From assembly GCF_009931435.1 (NCBI RefSeq), contig NZ_CP043414.1: DNA of 64,000 bases; one strand, written 5' to 3'. Position 1 is the stretch's first letter; each line of letters begins with the position of its first letter. Source of the DNA: Escherichia coli (GTDB lineage: Bacteria > Pseudomonadota > Gammaproteobacteria > Enterobacterales > Enterobacteriaceae). Shown piece after piece: positions 18,547-23,637 of the stretch. The notes beneath the pieces are model-generated. The model had not been told where the DNA came from, did no database searches, and worked only from the letters and a program-made list of their open reading frames with translations. Both the position numbers and the translations under genes were made by a program.

Positions 18547-20685
18547 ATGACACCGCATGTGATGAAACGAGACGGCTGCAAAGTGCCGTTTAAATCAGAG
18601 CGCATCAAAGAAGCGATTCTGCGTGCAGCTAAAGCAGCGGAAGTCGATGATGCAGATTATTGCGCCACTGTTGCCGCGGTTGTCAGCGAGCAGATGCAGG
18701 GCCGCAGCCAGGTGGATATCAACGAGATCCAGACCGCCGTTGAAAACCAGCTGATGTCGGGTCCATACAAACAACTGGCTCGTGCTTACATCGAGTACCG
18801 TCACGATCGCGATATTGAACGTGAAAAACGCGGTCGCCTGAATCAGGAGATCCGTGGTCTGGTTGAGCAGACCAACGCCTCGTTGCTCAACGAAAACGCC
18901 AACAAAGACAGCAAGGTGATTCCAACCCAGCGCGACCTGCTGGCCGGGATTGTGGCTAAACACTATGCACGTCAGCACCTGCTGCCGCGTGACGTGGTGC
19001 AGGCGCATGAGCGTGGCGATATTCACTATCACGATCTCGATTACTCGCCGTTCTTCCCGATGTTCAACTGCATGTTGATCGACCTGAAAGGTATGCTGAC
19101 CCAGGGCTTTAAGATGGGTAACGCCGAGATTGAACCACCGAAGTCGATCTCTACGGCAACCGCGGTAACAGCGCAGATTATTGCTCAGGTCGCCAGTCAT
19201 ATTTATGGCGGCACCACCATTAACCGTATCGATGAAGTGCTGGCACCGTTTGTCACCGCCAGCTACAACAAACACCGCAAGACCGCAGAAGAGTGGAACA
19301 TCCCGGACGCCGAAGGTTACGCTAACTCTCGTACCATCAAAGAGTGCTACGATGCCTTCCAGTCGCTGGAGTACGAAGTAAACACCCTGCACACCGCCAA
19401 CGGTCAAACACCGTTTGTGACCTTTGGTTTTGGTCTGGGCACCAGCTGGGAGTCTCGCCTGATTCAGGAGTCTATCCTGCGTAACCGTATCGCGGGCCTC
19501 GGTAAAAACCGCAAAACTGCGGTGTTCCCGAAACTGGTGTTTGCGATTCGCGATGGCCTGAACCATAAAAAAGGCGATCCGAACTACGACATCAAACAGC
19601 TGGCGCTGGAGTGCGCAAGCAAGCGCATGTATCCGGATATCCTGAACTACGATCAGGTAGTGAAAGTCACCGGTTCGTTTAAAACCCCGATGGGCTGCCG
19701 TAGCTTCCTCGGCGTGTGGGAAAATGAAAACGGCGAACAGATCCACGATGGTCGTAACAACCTCGGCGTGATCAGCCTGAACCTGCCGCGCATTGCGCTG
19801 GAAGCGAAAGGCGATGAAGCCACCTTCTGGAAGCTGCTGGATGAACGTCTGGTGCTGGCACGTAAGGCGCTGATGACCCGTATCGCTCGTCTCGAAGGCG
19901 TTAAAGCGCGCGTGGCCCCGATCCTCTATATGGAAGGTGCTTGTGGCGTTCGTCTGAATGCTGACGACGACGTTTCTGAAATCTTCAAAAACGGTCGTGC
20001 GTCTATTTCGCTGGGTTACATCGGCATCCACGAAACCATTAACGCGCTGTTTGGCGGCGAGCATGTGTATGACAACGAGCAGCTGCGCGCGAAAGGTATC
20101 GCCATTGTTGAACGTCTGCGTCAGGCGGTGGATCAGTGGAAAGAAGAAACGGGTTACGGTTTTAGCCTTTACAGCACGCCAAGTGAAAACCTGTGCGACC
20201 GCTTCTGCCGTCTCGATACCGCGGAGTTTGGCGTGGTGCCGGGCGTGACTGATAAAGGTTACTACACCAACAGTTTCCACCTCGATGTCGAGAAGAAGGT
20301 GAACCCGTACGACAAGATCGACTTTGAAGCGCCTTACCCGCCGCTGGCGAACGGTGGCTTCATTTGCTACGGCGAATATCCAAACATTCAGCACAACCTG
20401 AAGGCGCTGGAAGATGTCTGGGATTACAGCTATCAGCATGTACCGTATTACGGCACCAATACGCCGATTGATGAGTGTTACGAGTGTGGTTTTACCGGTG
20501 AGTTTGAGTGCACCAGTAAAGGCTTCACCTGCCCGAAATGCGGTAACCATGACGCCTCCCGTGTGTCGGTGACTCGCCGCGTGTGCGGATATTTAGGTAG
20601 CCCGGATGCGCGTCCGTTTAACGCTGGTAAGCAGGAAGAAGTTAAGCGCCGCGTTAAACATTTGGGAAATGGGCAGATCGGTTAA
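18547..20685 (+). CDS. nrdD: Anaerobic ribonucleoside-triphosphate reductase
   Basis: 712 aa, MTPHVMKRDGCKVPFKSERIKEAIL..., C-terminal glycyl-radical region and Zn cysteines. Confidence 0.97.
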   Translation: MTPHVMKRDGCKVPFKSERIKEAILRAAKAAEVDDADYCATVAAVVSEQMQGRSQVDINEIQTAVENQLMSGPYKQLARAYIEYRHDRDIEREKRGRLNQEIRGLVEQTNASLLNENANKDSKVIPTQRDLLAGIVAKHYARQHLLPRDVVQAHERGDIHYHDLDYSPFFPMFNCMLIDLKGMLTQGFKMGNAEIEPPKSISTATAVTAQIIAQVASHIYGGTTINRIDEVLAPFVTASYNKHRKTAEEWNIPDAEGYANSRTIKECYDAFQSLEYEVNTLHTANGQTPFVTFGFGLGTSWESRLIQESILRNRIAGLGKNRKTAVFPKLVFAIRDGLNHKKGDPNYDIKQLALECASKRMYPDILNYDQVVKVTGSFKTPMGCRSFLGVWENENGEQIHDGRNNLGVISLNLPRIALEAKGDEATFWKLLDERLVLARKALMTRIARLEGVKARVAPILYMEGACGVRLNADDDVSEIFKNGRASISLGYIGIHETINALFGGEHVYDNEQLRAKGIAIVERLRQAVDQWKEETGYGFSLYSTPSENLCDRFCRLDTAEFGVVPGVTDKGYYTNSFHLDVEKKVNPYDKIDFEAPYPPLANGGFICYGEYPNIQHNLKALEDVWDYSYQHVPYYGTNTPIDECYECGFTGEFECTSKGFTCPKCGNHDASRVSVTRRVCGYLGSPDARPFNAGKQEEVKRRVKHLGNGQIG

Positions 20686-20704
20686 TCTTCACTCTGCGCT
20701 AAGC

Positions 20705-20800
<96 letters not shown>

Positions 20801-20819
20801 TGATAAGCCAGGCGAAATA

Positions 20820-21284
20820 ATGAATTATCATCAGTACTATCCTGTCGACATCGTCAACGGCCCCGGCACTCGCTGCACCCTGTTTGTCTCCGGGTGTGTT
20901 CATGAATGCCCCGGTTGCTATAACAAAAGCACCTGGCGGGTAAATTCCGGTCAGCCATTTACCAAAGCAATGGAAGACCAGATCATTAACGATCTGAATG
21001 ACACCCGCATCAAACGCCAGGGTATTTCCCTCTCCGGCGGCGATCCGCTGCATCCGCAAAACGTGCCGGATATTCTGAAACTGGTACAACGCATCCGCGC
21101 CGAATGTCCTAGTAAAGACATCTGGGTGTGGACAGGCTATAAACTCGACGAACTCAACGCTACGCAAATGCAGGTTGTTGATTTGATTAACGTGCTGGTC
21201 GACGGCAAATTTATGCAGGATCTAAAAGACCCTTCCCTGATCTGGCGCGGCAGCAGCAATCAGGTGGTGCATCATTTGCGTTAG
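20820..21284 (+). CDS. nrdG: Anaerobic ribonucleotide reductase activating protein (radical SAM)
   Basis: 154 aa from ATG 20820 (MNYHQYYPVDIVNGPGTRCTLFVSGCVHECPGCYN...). Confidence 0.95.
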   Translation: MNYHQYYPVDIVNGPGTRCTLFVSGCVHECPGCYNKSTWRVNSGQPFTKAMEDQIINDLNDTRIKRQGISLSGGDPLHPQNVPDILKLVQRIRAECPSKDIWVWTGYKLDELNATQMQVVDLINVLVDGKFMQDLKDPSLIWRGSSNQVVHHLR

Positions 21285-21524
21285 TCACTCACCCAGTCGG
21301 ACCTTAATGGCCTCCTGTGGGTTGGCCAGTCGTTCCCTGACAGTGCGTAACAAGGCTTCTTCACTATCACTGACAGTGAGCGTTTTTACCGGCATTCGTC
21401 CATTTTCCGCAACGTACTGAAACAGCAGCCGCACTGCTTCAGTAGGCGTGATGTTTAATTTTTCCAGCACCGCATAAGCCTCATTTTTCAGTTTGTCATC
21501 CAGGCGGACGTTAAGTGTGGCCAT
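21285..21524 (-). CDS. DinJ/RelB-like ribbon-helix-helix protein (orphan antitoxin-like)
   Basis: 79 aa, MATLNVRLDDKLKNEAYAVLEKLNITPTEAVRLLFQYVAENGRMP... resembles the DinJ N-terminus; SD ggagg 5 nt upstream of the ATG; stop abuts the nrdG stop. Confidence 0.5.
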   Translation of the reverse strand: MATLNVRLDDKLKNEAYAVLEKLNITPTEAVRLLFQYVAENGRMPVKTLTVSDSEEALLRTVRERLANPQEAIKVRLGE

Positions 21525-21549
21525 TATGCCTCCGGTAATTATGAAAAGT

Positions 21550-21580
21550 GTAATGCATTATAGCAGTACATATGCATTAC
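21550..21580. promoter_or_regulatory. Inverted repeat upstream of the DinJ-like ORF (candidate autoregulatory operator)
   Basis: gtaatgcat...atgcattac arms with 13-nt spacer, including the 10-bp palindrome taatgcatta, about 30 bp upstream of the start. Confidence 0.4.
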
Positions 21581-21681
21581 ATTCATTTCTGGAAAACGCC
21601 TCGCAAAAATGAGGATGACACGCAGGATTATGTCGTGGTGAAGATAGATATTGCGGTGATTTTTCGAAGGGTAAGAAAGCG

Positions 21682-21707
21682 TTGGGCGGTAACGTTTCAC
21701 CGCCCAA
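21682..21707 (-). terminator. cybC intrinsic terminator
   Basis: Hairpin ttgggcgg...ccgcccaa immediately downstream of the cybC stop. Confidence 0.55.
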
Positions 21708-21714
21708 TAAGGAA

Positions 21715-22104
<390 letters not shown>

Positions 22105-22284
22105 TCACTTCCTTTTTTATTTACACTTCATCCTTCACACTGCCTCATCGACGGCTACGCTCATTCGACCGGGTCACGTACTACGAGTACGCTCCCCGGC
22201 TCTCATTCACTTTCCGTCTCGATGCAGCGCGAATGATTTTGTGTAATTTTTTAGTTTATGGCGCGGCAGGTCGCGCCAGCTTTT

Positions 22285-23637
22285 TTACTGCCCGGCGATT
22301 TTCATCTCCGGCAACAGCACAGAACCACACTGTATATTGCTGCGTGTTTCAATATCGTTACCGACGGTGACAATATTGCGCCACATATCTTTTAAATTAC
22401 CTGCGATGGTGATTTCGCTAACCGGATACTGAATTTCGCCATTCTCTACCCAGAAGCCCGCAGCACCACGGGAATAATCACCGGTAATGGCACTCACGCC
22501 CTGGCCCATCAGCTCCGTCACCACCAGCCCGGTGCCCATCTCTTTGAGCATTTGTTCGAAGCTTAGCCCTTGCCCGGCAATCCGCCAGTTGTGAATACCG
22601 CCCGCATGTCCGGTGCTTTTCAGCCCCAGTTTCCGCGCCGAATAGCTGGTCAGCAGCCACTGAGTCAGGATACCATCTTTGACGATATCGCGGCGCTCGG
22701 TGCGCACACCTTCGCTGTCGAATGGTGTAGATGCCAGCCCTTTCAGCAAATGCGGATGCTCTTCAATGGTCAGCCAATCCGGCAGAATTTGTTTACCCAG
22801 CGAATCCAGCAGGAAGGTGGATTTACGGTAAACCGATCCACCCGCTATCGCCCCCACCAGATGCCCAAAAAGTCCGGTTGCCACTTCATTGGCAAAAATT
22901 ACCGGCGCTTTCATGGTGGAAAGTTTACGCGGTGACAGGCGCGATAAAGTACGACGAGCACAATCGGCCCCGACCCACTCTGGCGTCTGCAGATCGCTCA
23001 TCGCGCGACCAATGGTGTAGGCGTAATCACGCTCCATATCGCCATTTTCTTCGGCAATTACGCAGCTTGAGAGTGAATGACGCGTTGAGCAATAACCCTG
23101 CAACATGCCGTGGCTGTTGCCAAAAACTTTTACGCCGTAGTGGCTGTTAAAACTGCCACCTTCGGTATTGGTAATACGCTTGTCCGCCTGTAATGCTGCC
23201 TGTTCTGCGCGAGCCGCCAGTTCAATAGCTTCATCCGGGGAAACTTCCGCAGGGTGAAACAAGTCGAGATCCGGCGCGTCAAAGGCCAGCAGCTCTTTGT
23301 CTGCCACGCCGGCACAGGGATCTGGCGAGGTATAACGGGCAATATCCAGCGCTGCCTGTACGGTGCGGGCAATGGCCTGCGGACTTAAATCGGTAGACGA
23401 TGCGCTGCCTTTGCGGTTCTGGTGATAAACAGTGATCCCCAGCGCGCCATCGCTATTGAATTCGACATTCTCCACTTCGCCATATCGCGTGCTAACGCTA
23501 ATGCCGGTGGTCTTGCTGACGGCAACTTCCGCACCGTCCGATTTGCCTGAGGCCAACTCCAGCGCAGTGGAAACTGCTTCTTCCAGAATCTTGCGCTGCG
23601 CTTCAACTTGAGAGATTACTTTCATTGCAAGTGCCAT
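22285..23637 (-). CDS. pmbA: Metalloprotease PmbA (TldE)
   Basis: 450-aa ORF; recalled as PmbA by sequence and position. Confidence 0.93.

Follow-up and report, generated by a model that had tools for sequence, protein, structure and literature searches.

Toxins of the RelE family are ribosome-dependent mRNA endonucleases. In the relBE module carried by the Qin prophage of Escherichia coli K-12, the antitoxin RelB is able to repress alone, with RelE acting as a co-repressor, and is itself a substrate of the Lon protease, while the substitutions R7A, K13A and S28L in RelB each abolish repression (PMC2812701). The extreme C-terminus of the antitoxin is dispensable, in that K-12 RelB devoid of residues 70-79 retains both RelE neutralisation and repression (PMC12301738). 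In Salmonella Typhimurium, the gene pair STM4449-STM4450 has been listed as relBE (PMC3868539, retracted; PMC8708949). Antitoxins that have no toxin beside them are also known: such orphans are abundant in E. coli, and have been proposed to function in anti-addiction immunity or as transcription factors (PMC10790755).

This work concerns an orphan antitoxin gene located between nrdG and cybC in the window, meaning the whole 64-kb stretch of E. coli DNA that was analysed. The gene is best explained, with a probability of roughly 80%, as the surviving antitoxin half of a chromosomal relBE module convergent with nrdG, which lost its toxin through a 283-bp deletion, but kept its promoter, operator, ribosome-binding site and open reading frame, and now persists as an autoregulated remnant in mid-decay. 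The gene itself is ordinary, being a RelB-family member already named in RefSeq, and one of a class known to be common in the species. The contribution made here is rather an account of toxin loss at the level of individual bases, together with its likely recurrence, the conserved linkage of the module to nrdG, and a putative operator composed of three boxes.

An orphan relB-type gene beside nrdG

A preliminary description of this DNA, made from the letters alone, had reported a 79-aa open reading frame with a strong ribosome-binding site. Both the frame and its quoted sequence were reproduced, with an ATG start preceded by a GGAGG motif (Table 1) that is conserved at 30 of 35 related loci, the latter coming from a wider scan that used one genome per species (L010-L044). 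The suggested ribbon-helix-helix character of the protein, and its resemblance to RelB, proved to be significant by Pfam, by NCBIfam and by comparison with the structure of K-12 RelB. The protein scored 58.1 bits against Pfam PF04221 RelB (E 8.6e-16; cutoff 22.4), 126 bits against the NCBIfam RelB equivalog NF008412 (cutoff 96) and 71 bits against TIGR02384 (cutoff 45.65), and the best solved structure was that of E. coli K-12 RelB (4FXE chain A; E 1.8e-19, residues 1-77), to which it has about 45% identity as counted from the alignment midline over residues 1-77. The family had been given as DinJ/RelB-like, of which the RelB part stands, on the strength of the equivalog and structural matches, and the DinJ part falls. 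Membership of the DinJ-YafQ type was rejected on two grounds: DinJ was absent from the PDB matches at E <= 0.01, and the lost partner, described below, was RelE-like rather than YafQ-like.

The ribbon-helix-helix domain lies at the N-terminus of the protein, covering approximately residues 1-45, and the C-terminal half to the presumed toxin-binding region, with the alignment to K-12 RelB reaching residue 76 of 79. In the alignments to 4FXE_A and 2K29_A, R7 and K13 are identical to the K-12 residues, and I8 and S28 are conservatively replaced by L and T, respectively. The exact window protein is already present in public databases under the name RelB/DinJ family antitoxin. Judged by its sequence, the gene is a RelB-family antitoxin of a known kind, annotated as such in RefSeq, and does not represent a new system.

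The abutment of the gene on the nrdG stop, and the interval of about 190 bp separating it from cybC, were both found to be exact in the window, with the nrdG stop codon (TAG, 21282-21284) directly adjoining that of the antitoxin gene (TCA on the + strand, 21285-21287). At the opposite end, a terminator-like hairpin separates the antitoxin promoter from transcription of cybC. No intrinsic terminator was evident 3' of the antitoxin gene, no significant RNA structure was predicted downstream of its stop codon (z = -0.97), and an Rfam search of 20600-22400 returned nothing in the island between nrdG and cybC. The absence of an adjacent toxin-sized frame likewise held: a tblastn search with the cognate toxin found no match anywhere in the 64-kb window, and the three mechanical open reading frames (48-53 aa) in the 190-bp spacer, which were considered as a hidden upstream toxin and rejected, had no significant Pfam match. 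The downstream overlapping RelE-family toxin gene that belongs to a complete type II relBE module is absent from the window.

Two features of the surrounding DNA may be recorded here. The nrdD-nrdG spacer contains a sub-threshold Rfam match to naRNA4 at 20672-20742, on both strands (41.9 bits, below the gathering score of 59.5), which is consistent with REP-type palindromic repeats; these also explain why the E. coli search returned thousands of short matches. The cybC-pmbA spacer (22102-22284) is 183 bp long in the window and some strains, and 52 bp long in others (e.g. L003). The extra DNA is flanked by imperfect 26-nt inverted repeats (22121-22146 and 22221-22246) with an inner 14-nt palindrome, and looks like a small palindromic repeat element that is polymorphic for presence or absence.

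Table 1. Positions in the window of the antitoxin gene, its control region, the deletion junction and the neighbouring genes.
Feature	Position	Strand	Remarks
nrdG	20820-21284	+	convergent with the antitoxin gene, stop-to-stop
relB-type antitoxin gene, intact, 79 aa	21285-21524	-	ATG start
Stop codon and last base of codon 79	21285-21288	-	derived from the lost toxin gene (3' end)
Deletion junction, single remaining 8-bp repeat copy	21289-21296		based on the E04 alignment, island lengths and junction sequences
Shine-Dalgarno GGAGG	21529-21533	-	4 nt 5' of the antitoxin ATG
Putative operator and core promoter	21549-21581	-	based on conservation across 35 loci
Inverted box 3, GCATTACA	21556-21549	-	
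-10 TATAAT, preceded by TGc (extended -10)	21562-21557	-	
Box 2, reads TGTACTGC in the window	21570-21563	-	C at 21566
Box 1, TGTAATGC	21581-21574	-	
Terminator-like hairpin	21682-21707	-	directly past the cybC stop
cybC	21715-22101	-	gap to the antitoxin gene 190 bp

Loss of the toxin gene

Complete E. coli genomes exhibit three states of the nrdG-cybC gap. Most have an empty site, consisting only of a 44-bp spacer; approximately 450 of 5,426 have an island between the two genes; and in 394 of these island-bearing genomes it includes a toxin gene, encoding a 96-aa protein annotated as RelE family, which is positioned between the antitoxin gene and nrdG, and shares 11 bp with the former. The comparison of this gap between strains that the preliminary description had suggested therefore uncovered toxin-bearing relatives, with the window corresponding to their island minus 283 bp. 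Among the three readings that had been offered for the gene, this deletion bears out that of a toxin-less remnant, and no evidence was found for recruitment to another duty.

Alignment to the island of E. coli E04 identified the missing 283 bp as the difference between islands of 470 bp, in the window, and 753 bp. Two copies of an exact 8-bp direct repeat flank the lost segment, reading CTGGATGA on the gene strand and TCATCCAG on the + strand; they exist because the antitoxin ends in ...RLDEL* and the toxin in ...KRLDE*, such that both share ...RLDE, and the 283 bp between the repeat copies hold almost the entire RelE-family toxin gene. At the junction, the antitoxin's ...RLD (codon 78) is joined to the toxin's final codon and its stop (...KRLDE*). 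The product of the deletion is a 79-aa protein ending in ...RLDE (RefSeq WP_000212714.1), an allele found without disruption on at least 1000 contigs. In the window, the remaining repeat copy reads TCACCCAG, the T-to-C change at 21292 resulting in D78G, and the C-terminus is ...RLGE where full-length alleles have ...RLDEL. The difference from toxin-paired alleles is limited to the last two or three antitoxin residues. Contig PTRH01000008.1 of assembly GCA_002965045.1 is 100% identical to the window over 6.2 kb.

The E04 toxin matched K-12 RelE with an E value of 6e-32 and about 63% identity, as counted from the alignment midline. It has all of K52, K54, R61, R81 and Y87, which we take to be the catalytic positions of K-12 RelE. 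The lost partner is a RelE homologue of 96 aa.

A 60-bp probe spanning the toxin-less junction detected it in 60 complete E. coli genomes, falling into four sequence classes and including IAI39, CE10 and many O145:H28 strains. All 60 are annotated with the antitoxin beside nrdG and no toxin, and the junction sequence is identical in all cases. Three flank haplotypes carry this junction, namely an nrdG stop of TAG with C at 21315, TAG with T at 21315, and TAA with T at 21315, and every one of them is also found with the toxin gene. The SNPs defining these haplotypes flank the junction closely, at 13 bp on its left and 18 bp on its right, so conversion tracts would have to be very short if recombination had spread a deletion that arose only once. 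It is more parsimonious that the repeats mediated independent deletions, and hence the deletion has probably recurred. However, alleles of the island can be exchanged. An ENA metagenome contig (L051) carries the island allele of the window, with D78G, the box 2 change described below and three spacer SNPs, and is identical to the window over approximately 575 bp (21223-21798), yet differs from it at 34 positions in the nrdG and cybC flanks. Homologous recombination has hence carried this allele from one background to another, so that the argument for recurrent deletion is weakened, though it still stands.

A different form of variation was seen in the toxin gene itself. Intact copies contain an (AG)4 tract, AAGAGAGAGAA, over codons K80-R81-E82 (the E04 toxin gene being L001:2086-2376). 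The tract is shortened to (AG)3 in L046 and in L010 (strain E69), two alleles that differ in flank haplotype, by a 2-bp loss that shifts the toxin frame to end in ...GKRELSRL*. Slippage within the (AG)n tract looks like a second recurrent route to toxin inactivation.

Beyond E. coli, the antitoxin-toxin module is convergent with a full-length nrdG at 31 of the 35 species loci (NrdG 85-98% identical at the protein level), with the end of nrdG 3-15 bp beyond the toxin in these 31. The genera represented are Escherichia, Citrobacter, Salmonella, Enterobacter, Klebsiella, Kluyvera, Kosakonia, Trabulsiella, Pluralibacter and others, and the pair STM4449-STM4450 of Salmonella Typhimurium is presumably this same nrdG-linked module, given the order of its locus tags beside nrdG. 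Such conserved linkage across species implies that the module is an old chromosomal resident of this site, rather than a recent mobile insertion. True plasmid homologues were at most 53% identical, and the single phage homologue 46%; the matches with at least 78% identity in the plasmid and phage search were to chromosome-sized or megaplasmid records. Across the 35 species representatives, the antitoxin frame is intact in every case, and the toxin is intact in 26, frameshifted or truncated in seven, and deleted in two.

The two genes were also observed to be conserved to different extents. Across genera, antitoxins are 80-91% and toxins 59-72% identical to the E. coli pair, and within E. coli the toxin gene is mostly 90-95% identical to that of E04, with the antitoxin gene at about 99%. 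The antitoxin being conserved more than the toxin is the reverse of the usual type II expectation. In addition, the gap between the module and nrdG is 0-15 bp in the 31 species, with no terminator-like hairpin between them, and nrdDG transcription, which is induced anaerobically, could run antisense into the toxin-antitoxin operon, or vice versa.

Putative operator and promoter

The preliminary description had also noted an inverted repeat upstream of the gene, GTAATGCAT-N13-ATGCATTAC, as a likely site of autoregulation. The repeat does occur in the window (21550-21580), with arms that remain perfect when lengthened to 10 nt (21549-21558 and 21572-21581), a pattern that occurred in none of 100 dinucleotide-preserving shuffles of the window. 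As a putative operator, the palindrome survives in a modified form: its arms contain boxes 1 and 3 of a conserved three-box array, whose box 2 had gone unseen, and is mutated in the window. The consensus of the 35 loci 5' of the ribosome-binding site is aTGTAATGC-N3-TGTAATGC-TAtAaT-GCATTACA, in which an 8-bp box occurs in three copies, two of them direct and 11 bp apart, and the third inverted. At all of these loci the putative operator boxes flank and overlap the TATAAT, and boxes 2 and 3 form a palindrome around it, which in allele E04 is a perfect 8-bp one. Box 2 is identical in 34 of the 35 species loci and in all other E. coli alleles examined; the A-to-C change at 21566 is found only in the window allele, of which L050 and L051 are database copies. 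The boxes contain ATGTAA, fitting the relO hexad [A/T]TGT[A/C]A, and have the TGTAA core in common with K-12 relO (PMC2812701). The base changed in box 2 of the window is the terminal A of this hexad, which was reported to be the least critical (PMC2812701). No second copy of the operator was found within the window.

A consensus promoter scan returned no sigma-70 site in this region, because the scan demands a good -35. Inspection by eye identified a TGcTATAAT extended -10, accompanied by only a weak -35 sequence that does not amount to a recognisable element. Separately, a block of approximately 25 nt located 5' of box 1 (21582-21610; consensus roughly TTTTGAGAGGCGTTWTCCAGAA) is conserved across genera, and the remaining spacer is not; this block is a candidate UP element, -35 substitute or other binding site. 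A further observation concerns P0010, an 80-aa allele on two contigs, which has R7C at the site where alanine abolishes operator binding by K-12 RelB (PMC2812701). If R7C is real, then by analogy this strain would be derepressed for the operon.

Explanations for the orphan, and its relation to known systems

The present behaviour of the remnant can be outlined by analogy with K-12 RelB. Deletion between the CTGGATGA repeats removed the RelE-type toxin gene and fused antitoxin codon 78 to the end of the toxin. The TGcTATAAT promoter, the operator boxes, the ribosome-binding site and a full-length RelB-type frame are all retained in the window. The antitoxin would dimerise through its ribbon-helix-helix domain, bind the TGTAATGC boxes overlapping the -10, and repress its own synthesis, although more weakly than a RelB-RelE complex would, now that RelE is no longer there as a co-repressor. 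The protein would be degraded by the Lon protease, and would have no cognate toxin left to neutralise. As K-12 RelB functions without residues 70-79, the changes in the final two or three residues of the window protein are not expected to disable it, and the orphan should be a competent, weakly self-repressing and unstable DNA-binding protein. All of these functional steps are modelled on a homologue of about 45% identity, and either the A-to-C change in box 2 or D78G could mark the start of decay, rather than continued function. The decay of the locus would then proceed from toxin loss, through drift of the antitoxin, to loss of the whole island, as has occurred in most E. coli.

It is unlikely that the orphan is instead kept by selection, whether to provide anti-addiction immunity against re-acquired, plasmid-borne or phage-borne RelE homologues, or to act as a transcription factor. 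The universally intact antitoxin frames include those of the nine species with dead toxins, and the family-wide dN/dS is about 0.07, with no rise in pairs involving toxin-dead lineages. However, losing the toxin first is the sole viable order of decay, so decay free of selection would generate an identical pattern, and pairwise dN/dS mixes evolution before and after toxin loss, making it uninformative. The six variants seen among the 79-aa orphans (T48K, E55D, E71G, A72T, D78G and D78N) are all in the C-terminal half, whereas of those in the 80-aa forms six fall in the DNA-binding domain and five in the C-terminal half (one-sided Fisher p = 0.037), which is a hint drawn from a small and non-random sample of 15 out of 192 cluster members. 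Although the roles proposed for the abundant orphan antitoxins of E. coli are of this type (PMC10790755), cross-talk between non-cognate toxins and antitoxins is rare (PMC12301738), the distant plasmid and phage homologues lend no support to anti-addiction, the whole island has been lost in most E. coli, and the operator has no second copy in the window. A more tentative synthesis, against which the odds still lie, would be that toxin loss is mutationally favoured and recurrent, with the orphan RelB then kept for its DNA binding, either to regulate or to give immunity should toxin alleles be re-imported. The slippage-prone features in this case would be the 8-bp ...RLDE repeats and the (AG)4 tract at K80-R81-E82, and the proposal, if true, would explain both the limitation of orphan variation to the toxin-binding half and the greater conservation of the antitoxin than the toxin across genera.

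The gene could conversely be a silent, non-functional pseudogene remnant, in which a disabling mutation has yet to accumulate. The deletion alleles are young, being separated from their toxin-bearing sisters by 0-4 SNPs across the island, and the window allele already has both an operator change and D78G, as well as no recognisable -35. Yet a perfect TATAAT with its upstream TG, the GGAGG and the full frame are intact, the 79-aa ...RLDE allele is undisrupted across its many contigs, and the promoter should be more active without the RelE co-repressor (PMC2812701), making silence very improbable. Hardly credible is that the gene belongs to a split pair, with its toxin encoded elsewhere, or is a DinJ-type antitoxin for a YafQ-like toxin. 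The inspected DNA is only 64 kb of a genome, and split pairs do exist in other bacteria (cited in PMC10790755), but the former position of the toxin and its deletion are directly visible, no RelE homologue was found in the 64-kb window, and the best matches of the antitoxin are to RelB, not DinJ.

Read as an nrdG-convergent relBE module in mid-decay, the locus is valuable in showing cleanly how a chromosomal toxin-antitoxin module decays. Within E. coli, the intact pair, the (AG)n-frameshifted toxin, the repeat-deleted toxin, the C-terminal drift of the orphan and the empty site can be found side by side. If the recurrence of the deletion is confirmed, and if expression and DNA binding of the orphan are established, then this would be a natural system in which to distinguish a neutral leftover from a regulatory or immunity role.

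The likeness to K-12 relBE of the Qin prophage (RelB structures 4FXE and 2K29) is apparent in the identical length of the antitoxins, at 79 aa, their approximately 45% identity over residues 1-77, the ribbon-helix-helix N-terminus with R7 and K13, and a C-terminal region of the alpha-3/loop-4 type. It extends to the overlapping downstream toxin gene in sister alleles of the window island, and to a putative TGTAA-core operator, matching the relO hexad, that overlaps the -10 (PMC2812701). Nevertheless, the window gene is a paralogue at a different locus, which is convergent with nrdG and not part of a prophage, its RelE partner has been deleted, and its three 8-bp boxes, two direct and one inverted, contrast with the four contiguous hexads of K-12 relO. 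DinJ has the Pfam family PF04221 and the general fold and architecture in common with the window protein, but gave no PDB match at E <= 0.01, compared with 1.8e-19 for RelB, and the RelE-like nature of the lost partner differs from that of YafQ. The nrdG-linked relBE module of other Enterobacteriaceae, exemplified by that of E04 (WP_000212715.1 and WP_088144802.1), has the same island, neighbours, promoter and operator as the window, and an antitoxin identical to it through residue 77. The window differs from this module in the absence of the 283-bp toxin segment, an RLGE rather than RLDEL end, and the A-to-C change in box 2. Like the orphan antitoxins surveyed in E. coli (PMC10790755), the window gene has no adjacent toxin, and is annotated by RefSeq in 60 complete genomes. 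Unlike them, its origin can be read base by base, through the endpoints of the deletion, the repeats that bound it and the sister alleles that still carry the toxin, instead of being deduced from the absence of a partner.
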